NCBI GenBank assembly: GCA_964615415.1
Contig: CAZTNI010000001.1
Span: 112,746 to 176,745, forward strand
Length of the DNA stretch: 64,000 nucleotides
Origin: an uncultured Candidatus Saccharibacteria bacterium
GTDB taxonomy: Bacteria > Patescibacteriota > Minisyncoccia > Phycocordibacterales > SBAW01
Reading direction: 5' to 3'
The notes under the pieces are model-generated. The model was not told where the DNA came from and did not search any database. It saw nothing but the letters and a program-made list of their open reading frames with translations. Shown here in pieces: positions 7,115 to 49,591 of this stretch (position 1 is the first letter of the stretch; each line of letters opens with the position of its first letter). Position numbers and translations under genes: made by a program.

Positions 7115-8026
7115 ATGGCTCAAAACCAGCTCCTTAACCTAAAGACCGAGTTTTTGGAGTATCTCGAGATCGAAAAAGGCCGCAGTATTAAGACGGTTGA
7201 GAATTATGACCGCTATATTACGCGGTTTATAGCTTTTGCGAAGATTTCTGCTCCAAAACATATAGAAGAGCGCACGGTACGCGAGTTCCGCCTCCACTTA
7301 AACCGTCAACCAGGCACCTCGAGCACGATGAAGCACAAGACGCAGAACTATTACATGATCTCGATCCGCGCGTTTTTAAAGTTTTTGCGCAAACGCGGCA
7401 TAGAATCCCTTAATCCTGAACGTATTGAGCTTGCAAAGGTGGGCGCACGCGACTTGGACCTTATTTCTTCGCAAGAACTCGATCGCCTGATGCAAGGACC
7501 AAAAGGCACTACGCTACGCGCCTTGCGCGACAAGGCAATAATGGAGCTGCTTTTCTCAACAGGTCTGCGCGTGTCTGAGCTTTGTTCGCTTAACCGCGAC
7601 TTAGACCTCTCGCGCGATGAATTTTCTATACGTGGTAAGGGTGAAAAGGTGCGGGTAGTGTTTTTGTCGACAGAGGCAAAGGCTGCAATTAAAGCCTACT
7701 TAGACAAACGCGGTGATGTTGATGAAGCGCTTTTTATACAAATGGGCAAAGCGTCTAAAAATGCGCATGAACTACGTCTTACTCCCCGCTCGGTGGAGCG
7801 TCTTATTAAACAGTATGCAATTAAAGCGGGCATTACGCGCAAAGTAACGCCGCACGTTATCCGCCACTCGTTTGCAACGGATCTTTTGGAAAACGGTGCC
7901 GACTTACGCTCCGTGCAAGCCTTGCTTGGCCACGCAAACATAGCGACAACACAGGTCTACACCCACATTACCGACAAACACCTGCGCGAAATCCATAAAA
8001 AATTCCACGGCCAGAGAAGGAAGTAA
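7115..8026 (+). CDS. xerC: Tyrosine recombinase XerC/XerD family
   Basis: 303 aa with the C-terminal catalytic motifs R...HxxR...Y (RHSFATDLLENGADLRSVQALLGHANIATTQVYTH). Confidence 0.9.
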   Translation: MAQNQLLNLKTEFLEYLEIEKGRSIKTVENYDRYITRFIAFAKISAPKHIEERTVREFRLHLNRQPGTSSTMKHKTQNYYMISIRAFLKFLRKRGIESLNPERIELAKVGARDLDLISSQELDRLMQGPKGTTLRALRDKAIMELLFSTGLRVSELCSLNRDLDLSRDEFSIRGKGEKVRVVFLSTEAKAAIKAYLDKRGDVDEALFIQMGKASKNAHELRLTPRSVERLIKQYAIKAGITRKVTPHVIRHSFATDLLENGADLRSVQALLGHANIATTQVYTHITDKHLREIHKKFHGQRRK

Positions 8027-9206: not shown

Positions 9207-9280
9207 AGAGACTGCAAGAATCTCCTTTGCTCCGGAGAGATATACCTCACTCCTGCACAAAGGAGATTCTTGCAGTCTCT
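9207..9280. repeat. Perfect 23-bp inverted repeat with 28-nt loop, followed by a T-run
   Basis: agagactgcaagaatctcctttg ... caaaggagattcttgcagtctct. The loop contains the palindrome ctccggag. 3' of xth. Confidence 0.8.
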
Positions 9281-9719: not shown

Positions 9720-11192
9720 TTATACAAAGTATTTCTTACGAATGTCCTTTACGTTTTCTTCTTCAGCTTCTTCCTTTTTTTCCTTCCCTTCTTCTCCTAA
9801 TTTGCGCAATTGTGCATCGTTAAGTTGCGAAAGTTCTTGAGATTTTTTTTCTAAATACTCTGCGGAATTTTTTTTCGGGTCATCTAAAACTTCTTCCAGT
9901 AGTGCGTGGAGCATCCACCCTAGTCGAGGCCCCGGCTTCTCCCCTGTCACCTCCATGAGACGCTTCCCGTCTATCCCGAGCATACCAACAGAGATGGGGT
10001 CGCGGAGTGCCTGTTCGATCATGGACTGATAGACCCGGAGACGGAAGGGTTGCTCCTTCGGGCGGCCGGTACCTATCCGGTCGCAGATGCGGAGTTTCAC
10101 CAAGTCGTCGATACTCTCCCTCCCCACGTTGCGGATAATGCGGCGAACGGCAGAGAGTGTGATCTTGTCCGGGTCGGAGAAGAACATGTGCCAGCGGACC
10201 AGCTTTTCTATCTTGTCGACAGTTTCACGTGGAAACTTAAGGTCTTCCAGGGCCTTTTTAGCCATTTTAGCCCCTATTACCTCATGTCCATGGAAGGTCC
10301 AGTCGTGCTTGTCGTCCGACCAGCGGCGGCTTTTTGGCTTTCCTATGTCGTGAAATAAGGCTGCAATGCGTATATCTAGGCTCCATTCCTTGTCTGCGGC
10401 GTGCTGCAAGGCACGCATAGAGTGCTCAAACACATCAAATGAATGTGCCTGGTTCTGCTCCACCCCTACCCCACGCTCGATTTCAGGTGAAACGTAGCCC
10501 AAAATACCCAAACTATGCATTAAAATAAGGGCTTTCATGGGTTTGGAGGACTTCAGTGTCCGTATAAACTCATCGCGCACGCGCTCCTTAGAGATTTTGC
10601 CTAACTGCTTGGCACACTCCCCCATTGCATCCTTAGTTTGAGCCTCAATTTGGAAGTCGAGCTCTGCGGAAAGCCGTACCGCACGCATTATGCGCAAGGC
10701 ATCTTCTCCAAAGCGTTCAACCGGATTTCCCACAGCGCGAATGATCCCGTCCTTTATGTCCTTAATGCCCTCGTAAAGGTCAACCAGCTCATCAGAGCTC
10801 GGGCTATACGCCAAAGCGTTAACAGTAAAGTCGCGTCTTTTAAGGTCTTCGTCTAATTTTTGGCTAAAAGTAACGCTATCTGGCCGACGAGCGTCGCTAT
10901 ACTTCCCTTCCGTGCGATATGGCGTTACTTCCACAATTTTAAGAGTTTCATCCTCTTCCCCGTCATTAACCACCCCTACAGTGCCAAATTCGTTCGTATA
11001 GTACGTATTTTCAAATAAGCCTTGTATTTGCTCGGGTGTGGCGTTAGTTGTTACGTCCCAGTCGTTTGGTTTTTTACCTAGAAAGAGGTCGCGCACGCAG
11101 CCGCCGACAATCCAAGCTTCAAAACCAGCCTTTTCCAAGGTATTTGTTATACGTGAAACCGGGGATGGAACATCCCCTGCCCTAATCTTCAT
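9720..11192 (-). CDS. cca: CCA-adding tRNA nucleotidyltransferase with HD domain
   Basis: N-terminal GGCVRD polymerase-beta motif, HD domain (HDIGK), Lys/Glu-rich C-terminal tail. Confidence 0.9.
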   Translation of the reverse strand: MKIRAGDVPSPVSRITNTLEKAGFEAWIVGGCVRDLFLGKKPNDWDVTTNATPEQIQGLFENTYYTNEFGTVGVVNDGEEDETLKIVEVTPYRTEGKYSDARRPDSVTFSQKLDEDLKRRDFTVNALAYSPSSDELVDLYEGIKDIKDGIIRAVGNPVERFGEDALRIMRAVRLSAELDFQIEAQTKDAMGECAKQLGKISKERVRDEFIRTLKSSKPMKALILMHSLGILGYVSPEIERGVGVEQNQAHSFDVFEHSMRALQHAADKEWSLDIRIAALFHDIGKPKSRRWSDDKHDWTFHGHEVIGAKMAKKALEDLKFPRETVDKIEKLVRWHMFFSDPDKITLSAVRRIIRNVGRESIDDLVKLRICDRIGTGRPKEQPFRLRVYQSMIEQALRDPISVGMLGIDGKRLMEVTGEKPGPRLGWMLHALLEEVLDDPKKNSAEYLEKKSQELSQLNDAQLRKLGEEGKEKKEEAEEENVKDIRKKYFV

Positions 11193-14324: not shown

Positions 14325-15092
14325 ATGACCAGACGAGGTATTGTAGCTGTTGTATTGATTCTTATTGTGCTCATTATTGGCGGGTGGTACTTCTTTATTA
14401 ACCGAGGTCCTGCTATTTCGTATACAGTGATTGAAAGCGGGGATCGCCAACACAAAGAAGAAACGGATTTTTACACCATCCAGATGACCTATCCTGACGA
14501 GACACCTCTTGTAGAACGCGGAGGGTGGGGTGCGGAAAATAGCGCTCAAGATGCTATAGAAGAGCTCTTGCAAGATGAGATGCAGGATTTTAAAAGCATC
14601 GTCGCAGAGAATTTAACAGAGACGGAAAAAGCACGTCTGCAGGAAAACCTTATTAAATATTCTTTGAATGTCGCATACAGGCCGTATTCTTCAGGAGAGT
14701 ATGTGTCGTATGAGTTCGATGTGTTTACCGACACAGGTGGCGCACACCCGAACAACTACTATCGCACGCTCGTTTTCGACCTTGAAGGGCGTACCGTTGC
14801 GCTCGGCGACCTTTTCCAGAGTGGTAGTTCGTACCTTGAACGCATTTCCGAAGAGGCAACGCGCCAAGTAACCGAGCAGATAACACAGCGCGCAGGGGCA
14901 GATGCTGTTGCAACGCTTATGCAAGAAGGTTTGGCACCCCGTGCAGAAAACTTTGAGAACTTTGTGGTAGACAGCGACCGTTTGCGCATCTTTATCCCGC
15001 CGTATCAGGCTGCGGCGTACGCAGTAGGGTCGTTTGAAGTCCAGATTCCGCTCTACGACATCCGCGACATCCTTAAACCAGAGGTTCGTTAA
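14325..15092 (+). CDS. DUF3298/DUF4163-like (RsiV-like) membrane-anchored protein
   Basis: N-terminal TM helix and a C-terminal domain with TDTGGAHP..YY motifs, recalled as characteristic of DUF3298. Confidence 0.55.
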   Translation: MTRRGIVAVVLILIVLIIGGWYFFINRGPAISYTVIESGDRQHKEETDFYTIQMTYPDETPLVERGGWGAENSAQDAIEELLQDEMQDFKSIVAENLTETEKARLQENLIKYSLNVAYRPYSSGEYVSYEFDVFTDTGGAHPNNYYRTLVFDLEGRTVALGDLFQSGSSYLERISEEATRQVTEQITQRAGADAVATLMQEGLAPRAENFENFVVDSDRLRIFIPPYQAAAYAVGSFEVQIPLYDIRDILKPEVR

Positions 15093-15104: not shown

Positions 15105-15189
15105 CAAAACAGCTTTTTCAAAGGTCCTCGGTTCTCCCGTATCGGGCTCGAAGCCCTCTCGGGCCAGACCTTGTGAAAAAGCTGTTTTG
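15105..15189. repeat. Structured repeat element, copy 1 (long stem enclosing a conserved core)
   Basis: Arms caaaacagctttttcaaaggtc / gaccttgtgaaaaagctgttttg flank the core ctcggttctcccgtatcgggctcgaagccctctcgggcc. A homologous core occurs at 20251-20287. Confidence 0.7.
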
Positions 15190-15204
15190 CTTAGGCCACT
15201 CACA

Positions 15205-15236
15205 CGAAAAAATCCGGCAATTGCCGGATTTTTTCG
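15205..15236. terminator. Bidirectional intrinsic terminator
   Basis: aaaaaatccggcaattgccggatttttt between convergent genes (DUF3298-like gene and hup). Confidence 0.6.
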
Positions 15237-15261
15237 TGTGCACACAATTGAGGTTCTGTTA

Positions 15262-15534
15262 CTATTTAACTGCCTCTTTCAAGGCCTTTGCAGCCTGGAA
15301 CTTAGGCACTCGCATAGATGGAACCTGAACTGATTCACCCGTGCGCGGGTTGCGTGCCGTGCGAGAGGCGCGCATTTTGGTCTTAAAGATGCCCAAACCT
15401 GCAATAGAGACCTCCTCATTCTTTTTGAGGGCTGAAACAATGGTTTCAATCACTGTCTCGACTGCGCGTTCTGCGTCTGCTTTGGTTGTACCAAGGACGC
15501 CATGCACCTTTTCTGCGATATCTTGCTTATTCAT
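15262..15534 (-). CDS. hup: DNA-binding protein HU
   Basis: 90 aa. MNKQDIAEKV...GLGIFKTKMRASRTARNPRTGESVQVP is typical of HU/IHF. Confidence 0.9.
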   Translation of the reverse strand: MNKQDIAEKVHGVLGTTKADAERAVETVIETIVSALKKNEEVSIAGLGIFKTKMRASRTARNPRTGESVQVPSMRVPKFQAAKALKEAVK

Positions 15535-15645
15535 AAGGGTTTATTAACGGGTAAATGAACCGTGTACCCTGTGCTGGTAGTATACGACTGCCAAAAAACC
15601 TTGCAATAGAGCCATGGGGATACATTTTTTTGACAAAAAACAAAA

Positions 15646-17175
15646 TTATCGTGCAAATTCAATGGCACGAGTCTCGCGAATTACCGTAACTTTGATCTCT
15701 CCGGGGTATTTAAGTTCACTTTCAATGCGTACTGCGATGTTTCGTGCGAGTTCTCGAGCTGCAACGTCGGTCATTTCGTCTGGTTTTACGAATACCCGCA
15801 CTTCGCGACCTGCAGAAATGGCATACGATTTCTCAACGCCGGTGAATGAATTAGCGATTCCTTCAATATCTGCAAGGCGTTTTATGTAATTTTCAACACT
15901 GTCACGGCGTGCGCCCGGTCGGCCGCCAGAAATAGCGTCGGCAACCTGCACGATAATAGATTCCGGTGTTTCGTACGGGTATTCCTCGTGGTGCGCCTGC
16001 ATTGCTTTGATGACTTCTTCAGAGACGCCAAATTTAGCGAGCACACGACGGCCAATTTCCACATGCGTTCCTTGTACTTCGTGGTCCAAGGCTTTACCAA
16101 TGTCGTGCAAAAGTGCGCCTGCGCGTGCGACTGCTGGGTTTGCACCAAGTTCTTCCGCGATCATGCCGGCAATGTGCGCCATCTCTACCGAGTGCTGGAG
16201 CACCGACTGACCGTACGATGTGCGGAAGTAGAGGCGACCCAATATCATCAAGAGGCGAGGGTCGAGGTTAAGTACGCCCGCTTCAAATGCTGCGGCTTCA
16301 GCTTTTTCTTTAATGATTTTATTTATTTCACCTTTTGCTTTTTCTACCGTTTCTTCAATCTTTGCGGGTTGAATACGGCCGTCGATGATAAGGTTTTCGA
16401 GTGCAACACGGGCAACTGCGCGGCGAATCGGGTCGTATGAAGAAAGCACGATAGAGCCAGGGGTGTCGTCGATAATAATTTCTACACCCGTTGCACGCTC
16501 AAGAGTTTTAATATTGCGGCCTTCTTTACCGATAATCTTTCCTTTAATATCGTCATTCGGAATCGTTACTGCGGTTGCCATGGTGTCGCTCGCAACTGAA
16601 TTACCAAGGCGATGAATCGCAGTGGTAAGAATTTCCCGTGCACGGCGCTCAAGACGTTCCATACCGTCGCGCTCAAGTTTCTGAATACGCACCATCATAT
16701 CTTCTGCATGTTCGCGCTCTAACTCTGCGTGGAGTTGCTGCAGCGCAGCGTCTTTTGACATGCCTGCCACACGTGCAAGTTCTTCAGCGCGCTGGGAAAG
16801 CATAGCTTCTGCGCGTTCGCGGATCGTTTTTACTTCTTCAATTTTATTTTTAACACGCTCAATTTCTTCATCGAGTTCTGCTTGTTTTTTGTCGAGAGAT
16901 TCCTCACGTTTAAAAATACGGTCCTCTGCCCGGGTAATTTTTTCTTCTTTATCTTTGAGCTCTGCTTCGACAGCAACTGCTTTTTGACGAGCCTCTTCTT
17001 CCGCACCGGAAGTTATGCGGTTTGCTTCTTCTTTAGCAGTGAGGAGAATTTGCTTAACTTCAAGCTCGATAGAGCCTTTGCGTGCAAGAACAAGGAGCCA
17101 CCTAAAGGTGTAACCAATGACCGCTCCAAGAACGCCCGCAAGCGCGAGGAGCAAAAACACTATTTTTAATGACAT
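15646..17175 (-). CDS. rny: Ribonuclease Y
   Basis: N-terminal TM helix, coiled coil, KH domain, HD domain (LLHDIGKA). Confidence 0.9.
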   Translation of the reverse strand: MSLKIVFLLLALAGVLGAVIGYTFRWLLVLARKGSIELEVKQILLTAKEEANRITSGAEEEARQKAVAVEAELKDKEEKITRAEDRIFKREESLDKKQAELDEEIERVKNKIEEVKTIRERAEAMLSQRAEELARVAGMSKDAALQQLHAELEREHAEDMMVRIQKLERDGMERLERRAREILTTAIHRLGNSVASDTMATAVTIPNDDIKGKIIGKEGRNIKTLERATGVEIIIDDTPGSIVLSSYDPIRRAVARVALENLIIDGRIQPAKIEETVEKAKGEINKIIKEKAEAAAFEAGVLNLDPRLLMILGRLYFRTSYGQSVLQHSVEMAHIAGMIAEELGANPAVARAGALLHDIGKALDHEVQGTHVEIGRRVLAKFGVSEEVIKAMQAHHEEYPYETPESIIVQVADAISGGRPGARRDSVENYIKRLADIEGIANSFTGVEKSYAISAGREVRVFVKPDEMTDVAARELARNIAVRIESELKYPGEIKVTVIRETRAIEFAR

Positions 17176-17403
17176 AAAGAGGGGAGAACATAAAAGGTAA
17201 AAGTTGGGTGGAAACAGGAAAATCTGAACACCTCAACAATAGCAGAAAGGATGTCACTACACAACGCGAACTCAGAGTTAGCAAAAGGGCCTCGCCACGA
17301 AGTCTCGCAGGGTACGCATAATTTCTTGCTAGAAATTTGCTCAGCCTCGGCGCCGTCGCGCCTGCGGAGCCCCTGCTCAACTTGTGGTGAGGCCCTTTTT
17401 AAC

Positions 17404-18030
17404 TTATTTTGTCACCTTTGCCTTGTTAACAAAGATTTCGTCTACAACGCCGTACTTCTTAGCCTCTTCAGCCATCATAAAGTAGTCGCGGTCCACGTCT
17501 TTTTCGATCTTTTCAAGTGGTTGACCCGTTGCCTTAGAGAGAATCTTGTTAAGGCGCTCTCTGGTAGCGATGATGTGTTTAGCTGTAATTTCAATGTCGG
17601 TAGCCTGGCCTTGTGCACCGCCCCACGGCTGGTGGATCATCACCTCCGCGTTCGGCAGCGCATAGCGCTTACCCTTAGTGCCAGCTGCCAAGATAACTGC
17701 AGCAGCAGATGCGGCAATACCCACACAGACAGTTGCAACGTCTGGTTTAACAAAGTTCATGGTGTCTAAAATGGCCAAACCAGCAGAAACCGAGCCTCCA
17801 GGGGAGTTTATATAGAGCTGAATGTCCTTCTTTGGGTCCTCAGAAGCCAAGAAAAGGAGCTGAGCAATGACTAAATTGGCTGTATGGTCCTCGATCGGGC
17901 CGCTCAAAAAGACGATTCGTTCTTTAAGGAGACGTGAGTAAATGTCAAAAGCGCGCTCACCATAAGGGGATTTCTCCACCACCATAGGTACGAGCTGGTT
18001 ATATATAGGGTTTTTGTCGTTTGATTGCAT
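17404..18030 (-). CDS. clpP: ATP-dependent Clp protease proteolytic subunit
   Basis: Ser-His-Asp motifs ([16 protein letters not shown]). 208 aa. Confidence 0.95.
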
Positions 18031-18155
18031 GGGGACAGTATAGTCTTGACGGTACTAACAATCAACTGTGATACTAGAGCTACAGGGTACAGTTCTCTCA
18101 TCCGCTCTGCGGCCCGTGTTTGCGAGGGTCATCGCAACTTGCCTAGGAGGCAATC

Positions 18156-18359
18156 ATGTTTGGTCTGTTCAACAAAATGCGCCGTTCTCTCGCCGCCCGG
18201 CGGGAGGCAGCGTACGCCCGACAGATTGCGGAGCTCAGCTCCGAATTGCACGACCTCCTTGAGAGGTCGAAGGCAACGACTCGTCAGGCGGAGAAGGTCG
18301 CGGCAGAAGCAGGAGAGCTTCGCCGTAAGGTGATGACTCTTCTTCTCTCTGCTGCCTGA
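18156..18359 (+). CDS. Small coiled-coil hypothetical protein
   Basis: 67 aa, RBS aggagg 5 nt upstream, followed by the tandem hairpins. Confidence 0.45.
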   Translation: MFGLFNKMRRSLAARREAAYARQIAELSSELHDLLERSKATTRQAEKVAAEAGELRRKVMTLLLSAA

Positions 18360-18369
18360 TTTGTTCTTT

Positions 18370-18438
18370 GAACGGGACCGAGGCCCCGTTCACAGACGTT
18401 CTGTTAGTTAGTTAAAGTGCGGGACCGAGGCCCCGCAC
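18370..18438 (+). repeat. Two adjacent hairpins with identical 8-nt loop ACCGAGGC and covarying stems
   Basis: gaacggg-accgaggc-cccgttc (18370-18391) and gtgcggg-accgaggc-cccgcac (18417-18438). Confidence 0.7.
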
Positions 18439-18554
18439 TCAAAGGATCCAGCTCTGTCGCAAGACATCTGGGTCCTTTTTCATTACTTGCGTGTTTTTAT
18501 ATTTTGTTTTATAGTGGTGTCCAGAATTGGTCATCCTACGAACAGGGGCACACA

Positions 18555-18878
18555 ATGACGCTCACGAGACGAGACTTTTTGTACTTGGTGGCAGCGACAT
18601 TCGTTGCGCTGACATGGACTCTATTCTTTGAAGCAGGTGTTGCAACCTCTATGTACCTGCTCTGTACTGCACAAGCAGCTGCGGACGAGTGTACAGGGGT
18701 GTGGCACGCCACAACCCGATTGTATTTCAGTGGCGGAATTTGTCTCGCGGTCGTACTCCTATTTCTCAATCTCGTTGTTAAAGATGCGAGGCAAGTACTA
18801 AAGCCGGCAAGCAGTTCTGCTCTGGCGGTAGTAGCAGGAGTTGCTACGCACTTGTTCGTCTATATGATTTCGAATTAA
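18555..18878 (+). CDS. Hypothetical membrane protein (N-terminus MTLTRRDFLYLVAATFVAL)
   Basis: Internal Met at 18555 chosen because the upstream part of ORF 18417.. reads through the hairpin. Hydrophobic helices and an RRDFL twin-arginine-like motif. Confidence 0.4.
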   Translation: MTLTRRDFLYLVAATFVALTWTLFFEAGVATSMYLLCTAQAAADECTGVWHATTRLYFSGGICLAVVLLFLNLVVKDARQVLKPASSSALAVVAGVATHLFVYMISN

Positions 18879-18913
18879 CAAAAAGGCAGGGATATCCCTG
18901 CCTTTTCTTTTTA
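18879..18913. terminator. Bidirectional intrinsic terminator
   Basis: aaaaaggcagggatatccctgccttttcttttt between convergent genes. Confidence 0.6.
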
Positions 18914-18914
18914 C

Positions 18915-19982
18915 TTATTCTTTTTTAGATTCAATCTCTTTTCCCTCGAGGAGTTGCAAGGTTTTTTCGTTGCGCATCACGGTTTCAATGTGGATGCGGA
19001 CTAACTCTGGCCGAGCGTCGGGGAAGTGCTCCAGCGCGTGTGTCATTTCTGTCGCAACTTCTGCCTGGTCTGCCTCTACTTTTTCTTCGGCAGCGATTTT
19101 GTTAAGTGCCAACTGGAGCTTTGCGCGCTTTTTAGCTTGCTCGCGGAAGTCGTTACGAACATCTTCTTCAGTTTTATTCGTTTGCTGCAAGTATCCCTCG
19201 AGGGTAAGGCCGAAGCGTGATACGTCTTCGCGCATCTGATTTAAAATTTTCTCGAGTTCAGACTCTATGAATACTTTCGGAATTTCTACCTCAGTTTTTT
19301 CAAGAAGTGCGTCGACGATTTTGCCGCGGCGTGCGTCCTTTGCTTGGCGCTGCTTTTCCTCGGTAATGCCTTTTTTAATCTGCTCTTTCAAAGCGTCTGC
19401 AGATTCAAATGCGCCGATAGACTTTGCAAATTCATCAGTGAGTTCTGGAACTACTTCAGTGCCGTCTTCTGCTTTTGTTTTGCGGCTTTGGCGGAGTTGC
19501 TCAATTGTTTTCTCAACCTCTTCGTCTGTTGCAGGAAGTGCGGTTTCAAGCACTATAGGCTCGCCAATTTTTTTATAATTCTTCGGGAGTTTTACTTCAG
19601 GGTACAGTGCAGTGCGGATAACCAAAGAGACTGGGTTTCCTGGAGCAAGTTTCGTGATGTGGATGTCTGGACGCGACACAACATCGAGCTTATTTGCCTC
19701 GACAATTTCTGGGTAGAGGTCGCCCATAAGGTGCTCAACCGCTTCTTCAAGTACGGCAATTTCGCCCACTTTTTTAAGCGCCATCTCTGGCGGAACCTTT
19801 CCTTTGCGGAAGCCAGGGAGCTCGAGCGACTCTGCAATTTCAATAAGAGAGTGTTCGCGGTAGGGAGTAAGGACGTCAAAAGGCACGTCGCCAGTAATTT
19901 CTACCTCTGAGTCAGGGAGATGTTTTACTGCAAAAGCTTTGGCGAGCTCTGCGAGGTTTGTAGGCACATTTGTTACTTTCAT
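18915..19982 (-). CDS. tig: Trigger factor (short form)
   Basis: N-terminal ribosome-binding signature GFRKGKVP and C-terminal chaperone arm. 355 aa only, so the PPIase domain appears reduced or absent. Confidence 0.65.
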   Translation of the reverse strand: MKVTNVPTNLAELAKAFAVKHLPDSEVEITGDVPFDVLTPYREHSLIEIAESLELPGFRKGKVPPEMALKKVGEIAVLEEAVEHLMGDLYPEIVEANKLDVVSRPDIHITKLAPGNPVSLVIRTALYPEVKLPKNYKKIGEPIVLETALPATDEEVEKTIEQLRQSRKTKAEDGTEVVPELTDEFAKSIGAFESADALKEQIKKGITEEKQRQAKDARRGKIVDALLEKTEVEIPKVFIESELEKILNQMREDVSRFGLTLEGYLQQTNKTEEDVRNDFREQAKKRAKLQLALNKIAAEEKVEADQAEVATEMTHALEHFPDARPELVRIHIETVMRNEKTLQLLEGKEIESKKE

Positions 19983-20022
19983 GACTATGGGATACTACCA
20001 AGTTGACAGAGTTCTGGCAATG

Positions 20023-20190
20023 TTATGCCTGATTATAGTACTCAAGCGGTTCTGCACGCTCGAGCTCGTTTTGTGCACTCAAAAAGAAATAAATTGCGCC
20101 TCCTAAAAGAAGCATAACCACCAAAACAATTCCAAAAAATGGACCGATCGGCGCATCTTTTTGTTTTTGTGGCACAGGAGTCTGTTCCAT
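20023..20190 (-). CDS. Small hypothetical membrane protein
   Basis: MEQTPVPQKQKDAPIGPFFGIVLVVMLLLGGAIYFFL..., with a TATAAT 7 nt upstream of the ATG (possible leaderless start). The longer ORF-track version begins at 20244. Confidence 0.35.
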   Translation of the reverse strand: MEQTPVPQKQKDAPIGPFFGIVLVVMLLLGGAIYFFLSAQNELERAEPLEYYNQA

Positions 20191-20225
20191 GTGGGTGATT
20201 ATAGCACTTGGCGTATACCACCTAC

Positions 20226-20314
20226 GCAAAACACTCCCTTGCAAATGGTCCTCGGTTCCCCCGTATCGGCTAGAAGCCTCTCGGGCCAGACCATTTGCAA
20301 GGGAGTGTGTTTGC
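20226..20314. repeat. Structured repeat element, copy 2
   Basis: Arms gcaaaacactcccttgcaaatggtc / gaccatttgcaagggagtgtgtttgc flank the core ctcggttcccccgtatcggctagaagcctctcgggcc. Confidence 0.7.
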
Positions 20315-27825: not shown

Positions 27826-27858
27826 TCTTACGATTCCTTCGCCGCTCCTTCTAAATAT

Positions 27859-28191
27859 TCAATCGATTCCTCTACAAGCGAAAGTTTGTACGGTTGAATG
27901 TTTAGAAGGGGCGATAATATCAACCCTATACAAGGCCGAGGGCGCACAGATTTTTGTTGCGTACAGCTGTTCTCCCGGTAGCACCAGGAGTTCTCGCATG
28001 TCTCGCGAGGTGAAATAACGAGCCCGGTGTTTTCCCCACCGGCCTACCTGCTCCCGCTTTGTGCGGTAAAGGGGTTCAAGAAAAAGGGAGGTGAAGACGA
28101 TGGTTGCGACCGCCTTTAGCGACAGCGACTCGTCTTGCACTAACACAATGTGTTTTGTAGAGCGCGCATTTTGAGCGCAGCTCCAAAGCAC
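27859..28191 (-). CDS. Hypothetical protein
   Basis: 110-aa ORF on the opposite strand inside the island, no recognisable family. Confidence 0.25.
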   Translation of the reverse strand: MLWSCAQNARSTKHIVLVQDESLSLKAVATIVFTSLFLEPLYRTKREQVGRWGKHRARYFTSRDMRELLVLPGEQLYATKICAPSALYRVDIIAPSKHSTVQTFACRGID

Positions 28192-29838: not shown

Positions 29839-30026
29839 ACTCTATTCAGTTCGCCTTATATAAGGTGAACTGATCGAGTCTTTGTAAAACTGTTTCGTAC
29901 TCGGCGTGCCCAGTGTCATGGCAGCAAAAACTCTCTCCTCGAGAAATTTTTCTTCGCTTCTATGATGCTTGGCACGCCGAGTATGTATTTCGGTTTTACT
30001 GTGTAACTGAAACAAAGGAGACTTGA

Positions 30027-30599: not shown

Positions 30600-31367
30600 G
30601 TGCACATGGCAAAAAAGCGTCTCGTGGTTGGTAACTGGAAAATGTATATTACTTCGCCTGAGGACGCATCAAAGTTTACAGTCGCGCTTCGCCGCAAGGT
30701 GCGCGGAGTCTCCGGTGTCGATGTATTTCTTGCTCCTCCGTTTACTATCCTTCCTAAAGTAGCGGACACACTCAGTAGTTCTCCTATACAGGTCGGCGCG
30801 CAAACTATCTCTGCTTTTATGGACGAAAAGCACACAGGAGATATTTCAGGAGTGATGCTTAAAAAAGCTGGTGCCTCGTTTGTTATTATTGGCCACTCCG
30901 AGCGCCGTTCACTCGGCGAAACGAACGAGCTCGTGCACGACCAAGTACTTCGCGCAGTTGAGTCGGGCCTTACGCCTATTCTTTGTATTGGCGAAAAAGA
31001 ACATGAAGAAGGCGGCGCACATTTTAATTTTATTGAACAGCAACTTTCGTCGGCTCTCAAAGACCTTCCACCAAAAGCTGTAAAGAAATTAATTATTGCC
31101 TACGAACCCGTGTGGGCGATAGGGAAAGCGGCAGCCGATGCTATGAAGCCGCAGGACCTTGAGCAGATGGTTATCTTCATTAAAAAAGTGCTCGCCGACT
31201 CGCTCGACCGCAAGGTGGCGCTCAGCGTGCCGATCCTGTACGGAGGTTCAGTAGAAGCAGAGAATGCGCCGAGTTTGTTGGAAACAGGGATCTCGGGCTT
31301 CCTTGTGGGGCGCGCAAGTACCGACGTTGATTCATTTACGCAGATAATCACTCTATGCAAAAAATAA
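30600..31367 (+). CDS. tpiA: Triosephosphate isomerase
   Basis: VVGNWKM, IIGHSERR, AYEPVWAIG motifs. Confidence 0.95.
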   Translation: MHMAKKRLVVGNWKMYITSPEDASKFTVALRRKVRGVSGVDVFLAPPFTILPKVADTLSSSPIQVGAQTISAFMDEKHTGDISGVMLKKAGASFVIIGHSERRSLGETNELVHDQVLRAVESGLTPILCIGEKEHEEGGAHFNFIEQQLSSALKDLPPKAVKKLIIAYEPVWAIGKAAADAMKPQDLEQMVIFIKKVLADSLDRKVALSVPILYGGSVEAENAPSLLETGISGFLVGRASTDVDSFTQIITLCKK

Positions 31368-32512
31368 AATCGGTTCGCGACGCGGATGTTGCAGGGAAGC
31401 GCGTGCTCTTACGTGTCGACTTTAATGTGCCACTTAAAAACGGAGAGGTAACGGACGATACGCGCATTACATCTGCGCTGCCGACTATCCAGTTGTTACA
31501 AGAAAAAGGTGCGGCACACATTACACTCCTTACCCATGTTGGTCGTCCGGAAGGGAAGGTGGTGGAAGAGTTACGCGTTGCGCCAATTGAAAAACATCTG
31601 CGAACGTTGTTGGCGGAGGCAAAACTTGGCCAGCAAAATGGTCTGGCCGAGCAAAGCGAGGAGAACCGGGGACCTTTTGCTGGGCATGTTTTGCCGGAGA
31701 TTACGCTGGAAGAAAACGTGCGGTTTAATCCAGGCGAAGATTCCAATGACGCAGCTTTTGCGGCAGAACTTGCAAAGCTTGGTGATGTGTTTGTAAACGA
31801 TGCGTTTGCAGACTCGCACCGCGCGCATGCATCTATCGTGGGCGTTGCAAAACTCTTGCCGTCCTATGCAGGGCTTTTGATGGAAAAAGAGGTGGAGCAT
31901 TTAGAGGCCGCACTCACACCACCGCCACACGCAATTGCAATTATTGGCGGTGCAAAGTTTGAAACAAAGCAGCCACTTATTGAAAAACTGCTTACGGTGT
32001 ATGAAAAAGTGCTGCTTGGTGGTGCACTTGGTAACGATGTTGTAAAGAGTCGCGGACTTCCGGTGGGTGCCTCGCTTATTTCAAATGTGCCGGTGCCCAC
32101 CTCGCTTGCAGGTAATGAAAACCTCGTGGTCGCAAAAGACTTTATTGTTAGCAATAGCGCTACTCAGGAAGTGCGCTCGATTGTGGAAAGCGATACTCGT
32201 AAGGAAGAAAAGATCGTTGATATTGGTCCCGTAAGTGCAAAGACGTGGGCAGGCATTGTTGCGGCTGCGCCGTTTGTGCTTTGGAACGGTCCGCTCGGTA
32301 TGTATGAAGATGGCTTTGCAGGCGGCACTGATACTGTTGCGGCTGCACTTGCATCCTCGGGAGTGCAGGCTGTCGTAGGTGGTGGCGACACTATTGCTGC
32401 CGTAGCGAAAGCGAACTTTAATCCAGACAAAGTATTTCTCTCAACTGGTGGAGGTGCAATGCTCGAGTTTTTAGCGAACGGCACACTCCCAGGAATTGAA
32501 GTGCTTAAATAG
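31355..32512 (+). CDS. pgk: Phosphoglycerate kinase
   Basis: 385 aa with conserved PGK N- and C-domain motifs. Overlaps tpiA by 13 nt. Confidence 0.95.
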   Translation: MQKIKSVRDADVAGKRVLLRVDFNVPLKNGEVTDDTRITSALPTIQLLQEKGAAHITLLTHVGRPEGKVVEELRVAPIEKHLRTLLAEAKLGQQNGLAEQSEENRGPFAGHVLPEITLEENVRFNPGEDSNDAAFAAELAKLGDVFVNDAFADSHRAHASIVGVAKLLPSYAGLLMEKEVEHLEAALTPPPHAIAIIGGAKFETKQPLIEKLLTVYEKVLLGGALGNDVVKSRGLPVGASLISNVPVPTSLAGNENLVVAKDFIVSNSATQEVRSIVESDTRKEEKIVDIGPVSAKTWAGIVAAAPFVLWNGPLGMYEDGFAGGTDTVAAALASSGVQAVVGGGDTIAAVAKANFNPDKVFLSTGGGAMLEFLANGTLPGIEVLK

Positions 32513-49310: not shown

Positions 49311-49591
49311 ATAACTTTGTTTGACTAATTCTGTGCATTTCATATACTTAAAAAAAGGTGCTCATTGTTTTGTTCCTGTTCACGAATAGGTACATGATTT
49401 CGGTCCGATGACTTAAGAATCGGATTTTTTATTTGGCACACAGTCAGGGTATTGATGCAGGCCGAGTAAAGAAATTGACGAAAAAATCCCCAGCGCTGGG
49501 GATTTTTTCGTATCGCAGGAGTTATTGACAAATATGTGTATGTACGGTTATGTAGTGACGGACAATTCAGTCCATAGGAGGACTAGCATAC

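Follow-up and report, generated by a model that had tools for sequence, protein, structure and literature searches.

A hairpin-forming repeat with a conserved apical core, probably a mobile DNA element, between genes and in frame within essential genes of Patescibacteria

A 64,000-nucleotide stretch of DNA from an uncultured Candidatus Saccharibacteria bacterium (contig CAZTNI010000001.1, positions 112,746 to 176,745; the whole stretch is hereafter called the window) contains three copies of a short sequence that folds into a long hairpin around a conserved core. These hairpins are probably a short, non-autonomous, hairpin-forming mobile DNA element, of the kind of the Rickettsia palindromic elements (RPEs) and of MITEs (miniature inverted-repeat transposable elements), that is translated when it lies in a permissive loop of a protein. 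This reading is based on the dispersal of the element among unrelated contexts, on reciprocal filled and empty sites and on its occurrence in both orientations, as well as on its in-frame presence in three unrelated essential genes (pgk, polA and recJ), its terminal inverted repeats, its hairpin potential and the lack of a match to any RNA family. The evidence fits neither a cis-regulatory RNA nor a ribozyme nor a peptide module. The window carries housekeeping genes of the Patescibacteria type, and its database relatives carry the annotation Patescibacteria.

A preliminary description of the window had reported two copies of the element, at 15105-15189 and 20226-20314, and both the coordinates and the shared core were found to be correct. 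Copy 1 (forward strand, 85 nt) was delimited from the sequence as read, its fold (-43.8 kcal/mol, z score -6.8) and its match to covariance model R1 (80.1 bits, E value 1e-23). It is intergenic, beginning 12 nt past the TAATAA stop of a DUF3298/PdaC-like gene (14325-15092, forward strand), and a perfect bidirectional terminator (15201-15240), next to which is a convergent HU gene, begins 11 nt beyond it. The left arm, CAAAACAGCTTTTTCAAAGGTC (15105-15126, forward), has at its outer end the terminal repeat CAAAACA that is common to all three copies in the window, and the right arm, GACCTTGTGAAAAAGCTGTTTTG (15167-15189, forward), has one bulged G. The core between them (15127-15166, forward) was assigned from sequence, fold and conserved alignment columns and comprises CTC on the 5' side of an internal loop, GG, a TTCT bulge, CCCG, TATC, the apical hairpin GGGCT-CGA-AGCCC, TCT, CGGG, CC and A. 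Copy 2 (forward strand, 89 nt; recognised by sequence, fold and a covariance model score of 70.6 bits) is also intergenic, antisense to the gene string nusA-ppa-orf-tig, and is flanked by the ppa stop (20322) and by a TGCTATAAT box upstream of a small membrane open reading frame (ORF). Its left arm GCAAAACACTCCCTTGCAAATGGTC (20226-20250), core (20251-20288; CTC, GG, TTCC, CCCG, TATC, GGCT-AGA-AGCC, TCT, CGGG, CC and A) and right arm GACCATTTGCAAGGGAGTGTGTTTGC (20289-20314) are likewise given on the forward strand. Relative to local transcription, copies 1 and 2 are in opposite orientation.

Each of these two copies folds as a long hairpin on either strand (z scores of -6.8 to -8.5 against dinucleotide shuffles). 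The apical hairpin is shortened symmetrically between them, as had been claimed, from GGGCU-CGA-AGCCC in copy 1 to GGCU-AGA-AGCC in copy 2, and comparison of the arms gives 9 compensated pairs (both sides changed, pairing kept) versus 2-3 broken pairs. The arms do not, however, differ completely, as the preliminary description had it: both copies open with CAAAACA and close with GTTTTG, both have GGTC/GACC at the core, and the differences are confined to the middle 8-12 nt. The 19-nt core half CTCGGTTCYCCCGTATCGG has exactly 2 matches in the window at up to 3 mismatches, where 0.03 would be expected, and the 3' core half GCCTCTCGGGCCAGACC also has exactly 2 at the same stringency, where 0.11 would be expected. 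The probability that copies 1 and 2 owe their likeness to chance or to a recent segmental duplication, an explanation for which the shared core alone could be cited, is negligible; it is refuted by the unrelated flanks, the compensated changes in the arms, the expectation of 0.03-0.11 chance matches and the homologous copies in other genomes. The reservation attached to the original proposal, that no more copies might exist and that the pair might be a recent segmental duplication, is answered by the same homologous copies and unrelated flanks.

In the predicted fold of copies 1 and 2, read from the base, a 22-25 bp stem ending in GUC/GAC is followed by an internal loop (CUC on its 5' side, one A on its 3' side), a 2-bp GG/CC helix, a 4-nt UUCY bulge, a CCCG/CGGG helix, an internal loop of UAUC/UCU and a short apical hairpin. 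The conserved block (GTC...GAC) amounts to ~46 nt, not the ~38 nt first proposed, while the element ranges in length from 62 to 107 nt, with arms of 20-29 nt, and its folds have z scores of -3.8 to -8.5. GUCC.CGG, the UC of the bulge and CCAGAC are invariant in 12 of 12 copies, and just these blocks are retained in two minimal copies, one in pgk of L037 (a locus colinear with the window) and the other in L031.

The proposal that a conserved core sits within covarying stems is supported by 12-15 copies from several genomes. A covariance model and a covariation test had been recommended; in a model-guided alignment of 12 copies, 88.7% of stem cells were paired, as compared with 69.9% in column shuffles and 32-50% in slid controls with the partners moved 1-3 columns, and 19 of 29 stem pairs had changed on both sides, with 0 of 500 shuffles reaching any of five measures, although these figures overstate independence, the copies being related and the alignment having been fitted to the structure. 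Comparison of single pairs of copies is robust: between the sister polA copies L023 and L030 there are 4 compensated double changes and 1 single change, and between L023 and L026 there are 5 and 1, respectively. The inner hairpin covaries as well, being AUGGGUCC/GGACCCAU in L023, AUGAAUCC/GGAUUCAU in L030 and ACGAGUCU/AGACUCGU in L022.

The element had been taken to be present in only two copies, but a covariance model built from 11 copies and run across the window without filters identified a third (31619-31693, 75 nt or 25 codons, with the top strand of the element on the minus strand; 58 bits, E value 2e-16) within the phosphoglycerate kinase gene pgk (31355-32512, forward strand; 385 aa; Pfam PGK, 7.7e-101). 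The earlier statement that copies occupy intergenic positions or the 3' ends of genes therefore holds for copies 1 and 2 and overlooks insertion in frame within an ORF. In the frame of pgk, copy 3 reads as AKLGQQNGLAEQSEENRGPFAGHVL, corresponding to residues 89-113 of the predicted protein; its termini are CAAAACA...GTTTTG, as in copies 1 and 2, and its core is shortened to GTC CCC GG TTCT CC-11 nt-GG CC A GAC. In an alignment of 120 homologues, most PGK proteins lack the insertion (357-365 aa versus 385 aa), as does homologue P0122 (68% identity), and three others carry insertions at the same site, the peptides of which match the element in other frames or orientation. A predicted Arg-bounded peptide, GLAEQSEENRGPFAGHVLPEITLEENVR, crosses the 3' junction of the insertion. 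The AlphaFold model of this PGK has a mean predicted local distance difference test score (pLDDT) of 91.9, but over residues 91-120 the means per block are 71, 48 and 77, which fits a low-confidence surface segment or loop in an otherwise confidently predicted fold.

At 66-77% nucleotide identity, the contig of L037 runs colinear with the window, and filled and empty sites are distributed reciprocally between the two. In pgk of L037, a forward minimal copy without most of the core, but with the termini CAAAAC(A)...(T)GTTTTG, occupies the site where the window copy is reversed. In recJ of L037, an in-frame copy adds 36 aa right behind the DHH motif, an insertion that RecJ of the window lacks, and a diverged intergenic copy (9843-9925) lies upstream of recJ, where the window again has none. 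Conversely, the spacer between ppa and the small ORF, which holds copy 2 in the window, is only 21 nt long in L037 and contains no copy. The terminal inverted repeat CAAAAC(A)...(T)GTTTTG is found in all three window copies and the pgk copy of L037; overall, element termini read CAAAAC or GGCAAC. Within the recJ copy of L037 (10432-10538), the 5' core block GTCCTCGGGGGTCCTCGG is tandemly duplicated and the 29-nt arms do not start with CAAAAC.

When one genome per species was scanned with a core-based pattern, a single true locus emerged, L001, from a metagenome-assembled genome of Patescibacteria, in which the element is in frame within polA, in the linker that joins the 5'-3' exonuclease domain to the polymerase domain. 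Metagenomes scanned in the same manner gave 18 loci, all of them chance matches without the CTC and CCAGAC flanks or the arms; the patterns of both scans were too specific to one core subtype (CCCGTATCGG). A broader pattern applied to viral contigs gave two GC-rich matches without complementary arms, which were judged to be chance. Among the best 120 PolA homologues of L001 listed, ~19 carry the translated forward element at one linker position (KKVLGSP...SGQTIF) and 5 carry a second motif (ETSGQNSL...ENRGLF), which the DNA of L034 identifies as the same element on the opposite strand, whereas the closest relatives (72-75% identity) have neither motif. The peptide signatures are KVLGSP...SGQTIF (forward) and GQNSLA...ENRGLF (reverse), the peptide VLGSPVSGEDALSGQTIF in PolA spans the insertion, and the presence of the element was confirmed at the DNA level in eight polA genes. 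A search for further copies, also recommended in the preliminary description, was thus productive in pgk of the window, in L037 and in polA of other Patescibacteria. When translations of the element in the non-polA frames were concatenated into a 1083-aa query, no match appeared at an E value of 10 or less; as short matches are unable to attain significance in a search of 5.8 billion sequences, this result is uninformative on other host genes.

The polA linker of L033 is free of the element and has no hairpin, from which it follows that the arms arrive together with the element. Two other origins of the hairpins, insertion of the core alone into a pre-existing host hairpin and formation of the arms by inverted duplication of the target, were ruled out by this linker and by the 75-nt pgk insertion, which contains both arms; the second was ruled out also by the homology of arms across genes (copy 3 versus L026 and L034). 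In the polA linker of L034 (1938-2105), an orphan forward left arm GGCGAAACCTCCCAGAAAAAAGTC stands directly upstream of a complete reverse element, an arrangement that, judged from the sequence, points to a double insertion, either nested or rearranged. The surroundings of polA at L024 (10606-14537), L031 (20808-22424) and L033 (16060-17373) encode large serine recombinases or phage-like genes (N6/N4 methyltransferases, terminase), and no link between these genes and the element was established.

In all coding copies (pgk, polA and recJ) the coding frame of the host gene is preserved. When 15 copies were examined in six frames each, 59 of the 90 frames were open, versus ~29 expected, a number that 0 of 1000 shuffles reached; copy 3 and the copy of L034 are open in six of six frames. 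This depletion of stop codons in all six frames helps to explain the survival of the element within ORFs in either orientation. The recurrence of one peptide motif at one position in many PolA proteins might instead be attributed to selection on the protein, with KVLGSP...SGQTIF as a module and the likeness at the DNA level as its by-product. This explanation, to which we give practically no credence, is effectively refuted by the intergenic and reverse-orientation copies: copies 1 and 2 are non-coding, the pgk, recJ and polA copies lie in differing frames or orientations and so specify unrelated peptides, conservation reaches synonymous positions, and the PGK segment is predicted by the model to be disordered.

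At the gathering threshold, Rfam recognised four tRNAs in the window and nothing else, and at an E value of 10 or less gave only generic hairpin, microRNA or leader matches, far under their thresholds; comparison with Rfam, which had been advised, accordingly supplied no relevant family. The K-turn, the T-loop, domain IV of the signal recognition particle RNA and domain 5 of group II introns were compared by eye and rejected, the G·A pairs or the sequence order being absent and Rfam support lacking. Around copies 1 and 2, a scan detected neither a promoter for the element nor a canonical terminator formed by it, and copy 1 is not needed as a terminator because the one at 15201-15240 sits 11 nt away. 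Such results make it very unlikely that the element is a strand-specific structured RNA, whether a small non-coding RNA, a cis-regulatory motif or a self-cleaving ribozyme with a free closing stem, even though a conserved internal-loop core with a covarying closing stem is typical of such RNAs and the bottom strand is the better folded in every copy. Because the element occurs in both orientations within essential ORFs, its functional strand would in many cases go untranscribed or be antisense, and harm would follow if the pgk or polA mRNA were to cleave itself. Of the candidates put forward in the preliminary description, a protein-binding cis-acting RNA is disfavoured by the same occurrence in both orientations and by in-frame translation within unrelated essential genes, and a self-cleaving ribozyme by the minimal pgk copy of L037, which is without most of the core, and by the Rfam result; the remaining candidate, an element like REP (repetitive extragenic palindromic) sequences or MITEs with an internal recognition site, is the one that gained support.

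The mismatches in the stems are themselves strand-biased. In the forward polA copies of L001, L022, L023, L026, L028, L030 and L031, transition mismatches read from the sense strand are A·C in 22 cases versus G·U in 3. At least one such mismatch is present in 7 of the 8 forward polA copies, that of L024 having none, and in these seven the antisense strand folds 2.6-19 kcal/mol better, because nearly all of the mismatches are A·C on the sense strand. Selection on a bottom-strand RNA would be expected to leave such an excess of A·C on the top strand, equivalent to G·U on the bottom one. The sole reverse coding copy with a transition mismatch, that of L034, nevertheless has it on the other strand of the element and obeys the sense-strand rule (n=1), which fits a link to the sense strand of the gene rather than to one strand of the element. 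The asymmetry could be due to selection that weakens the mRNA hairpin or to a functional bottom strand. G·U intermediates are nearly absent among covarying pairs, which counts further against a structured RNA and hints at a DNA-level process that copies one arm from the other, not at stepwise compensation of the RNA type.

Several observations weigh against a mobile element. Neither the window ORFs scanned nor the Pfam annotation of the loci retrieved includes a transposase. Inspection by eye of five copies, the flanks of which are loosely TNC on both sides, revealed no clear target-site duplication; native codons account for a CGGAG repeat around the pgk copy. The copies are modest in number (3 in the 64-kb window, 3 in 17 kb of L037, and the polA copy alone in ~20 kb of seven other loci), no near-identical full-length pair of copies, which would prove recent transposition, was seen, and the filled and empty sites could in principle represent deletions rather than insertions. 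The polA copies, moreover, share position and frame, and their core subtypes track PolA subclades, so that by sequence they look vertically inherited; a dead selfish copy should decay, yet the core is fixed at synonymous sites and the arms still pair. At invariant four-fold degenerate codons, a single third base is shared by all of the seven polA genes compared at 5 of 6 sites in the core, versus 24 of 176 sites (13.6%) elsewhere in the gene (binomial p ~3e-4), and the sixth site of the core is the variable first base of the bulge. Since selection on mobility cannot preserve a resident copy, some other force must be at work: use at the level of the host, conversion, or re-insertion or flipping. 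The occurrence of both orientations at the polA and pgk sites and the nested arrangement in L034 point to conversion or to repeated re-insertion or flipping.

Use by the host would mean a nucleic-acid structure selected in either orientation, such as a cruciform or hairpin for a nucleoid, replication or repair protein, or a site for the processing or stabilisation of transcripts by RNase III or RNase Y, with copies retained for that use irrespective of where they came from. Typical substrates of RNase III are long perfect stems of 22-25 bp, to which the stems of the element may be likened, and the location of intergenic copies at operon junctions or 3' ends, the fixation of synonymous sites in the polA core (5 of 6 versus the 13.6% background in seven genes) and the compensated changes that maintain arm pairing in a vertically inherited polA lineage are all in keeping with this possibility. 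We nevertheless consider it unlikely, because the nearest relatives are without the element and have no replacement for it (polA of L033, PGK of P0122, RecJ of the window and the ppa spacer of L037), because its locations are unrelated genes and spacers, because so strongly asymmetric a core occurs in both orientations relative to transcription, and because the minimal pgk copy of L037 has dispensed with most of that core.

The element consists of short terminal inverted repeats (CAAAAC...GTTTTG in the lineage of the window), two complementary arms with freely variable middles, and an asymmetric apical core, GUC|CUC|GG|NUCU|variable hairpin|CC|A|GAC, in which the unpaired nucleotides are nearly invariant. 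It probably spreads at the DNA level in Patescibacteria genomes, and copies would persist where they do little harm, in intergenic spacers and in surface loops or linkers such as the PGK loop, the polA linker and the RecJ loop that follows DHH; those within proteins would be translated into 20-36 additional residues, aided by the depletion of stop codons. The conserved core may be the recognition site of a structure-specific enzyme (a recombinase, transposase or nuclease) acting on the folded hairpin, by analogy with HUH transposases, REP-associated tyrosine transposases (RAYTs) and integron integrases, which act on folded single strands; recognition of this kind could account for pairing and core being kept while the sequence of the arms is free. 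Resident copies may be refreshed by conversion, re-insertion or flipping instead of decaying, which would explain the conservation of synonymous sites in polA. It is possible, though doubtful, that the putative enzyme acts again and again on copies resident at the same protein sites, re-targeting, flipping or converting them, and so preserves core and pairing over long times in the essential genes of episymbionts with reduced genomes while constantly writing new peptide segments; if true, this would be a mechanism of transposition or conversion that has not been described for MITEs, REPs or RPEs.

No candidate for the mobilising enzyme was found among the window ORFs scanned. The window encodes an exonuclease III and a single Xer-type tyrosine recombinase (7115-8026), which passes the NCBIfam XerA/integron-integrase cut-off (238.6 versus 220 bits), falls below the XerC and XerD cut-offs, and is probably the chromosome dimer resolvase. 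Tyrosine recombinases are able to act on folded hairpins. No Y1/RAYT domain was seen in the window or the fetched loci.

Other palindromic and regulatory features of the window were noted. The terminator-like perfect bidirectional palindromes at 15201-15240 and 49478-49511 have a common outer sequence, ACGAAAAAATCC...GGATTTTTTCGT. Three further long imperfect palindromes, at 9207-9280, 29898-29983 and 27843-27913, have arms of 34, 31 and 23 nt, respectively, and loops unrelated to the core of the element; these may represent further families of palindromic repeats, or terminators of unusual length. The extended -10 box TGCTATAAT (within 20185-20215, minus strand) precedes the start codon (ATG) of the small membrane ORF, which lies downstream of copy 2, by only 6 nt, a distance that suggests a leaderless or near-leaderless mRNA.

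Palindromes that code for protein in frame have hitherto been described as peculiar to Rickettsia and Wolbachia, and the Patescibacteria supply an unrelated family. Its presence in a second lineage of tiny-genomed, host-dependent bacteria suggests that in-frame palindromes recur in reduced genomes, and it makes a second, independent system available for questions about the movement of such elements and about why essential enzymes tolerate them. The combination of a conserved core with free arms is unusual, and there are signs of maintenance in situ. Insertions of this sort inflate and diversify the linkers and loops of proteins of the candidate phyla radiation, and they can confuse alignments, ortholog calling and screens for non-coding RNA; the covariance model and the peptide signatures are a direct handle for a phylum-wide census.

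Among known systems, the palindromic repeats of Rickettsia and Wolbachia are the closest in kind. The published accounts (PMC2229807, PMC3184786) describe Rickettsia palindromic elements as stem-loops of 105-146 bp that lie between genes and, in frame, in 19 protein genes, with at least one element-bearing protein still active, and attribute RPE-1 to RPE-8, together with the palindromic repeats that code for protein in Wolbachia, to Ogata et al. 2000, 2002 and 2005. Like the element of the Patescibacteria, these are short (~100 nt) hairpin repeats without an enzyme of their own, present both between genes and in frame within housekeeping genes, without a clear target-site duplication, in hosts that have small genomes and depend on other cells. 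The host phylum is different, however, and the likeness is one of functional class, with no sequence relationship shown or expected. Furthermore, the present element is shorter (62-107 nt versus 105-146 nt), its asymmetric apical core is the most conserved part while the sequence of its arms is free, and one protein site holds both orientations in different lineages.

The MITEs (Correia/NEMIS, ERIC, RUP and Nezha) resemble the element in their small size, terminal inverted repeats, long stem-loop, dispersed copies and filled and empty sites, and some of them also fuse to ORFs. Classic MITEs, however, keep the terminal repeats bound by the transposase and vary internally, whereas the present element is conserved internally, and they usually have target-site duplications and a parent insertion sequence; for the present element no convincing duplication was seen, and no parent insertion sequence was found in the window or the loci retrieved. 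The REP sequences and REPINs (RAYT, HUH) and the subterminal hairpins of IS200/IS605 may be the nearest analogy for the working of the element, in that recognition is thought to take place through a folded single strand and no target-site duplication is made. Membership of the REP/REPIN group was rejected on the lack of a GTAG or CGTC tag at the element termini, and no RAYT/Y1 gene was seen in the window or the fetched loci; REPs are also extragenic, unlike this element, which is often intragenic. Integron attC sites too are imperfect hairpins of variable sequence in which a structure with asymmetric unpaired bases is kept, and a tyrosine recombinase recombines them as folded single strands. 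In attC sites, however, the boxes RYYYAAC and GTTRRRY are basal and the apex is variable, the opposite of what is seen here, so that membership failed on the R''/R' boxes, which CAAAAC/GTTTTG termini misfit, on the apical conservation and on the absence of a cassette array. We class the element as a new, unrelated family of the Rickettsia palindromic element kind, in a new lineage.

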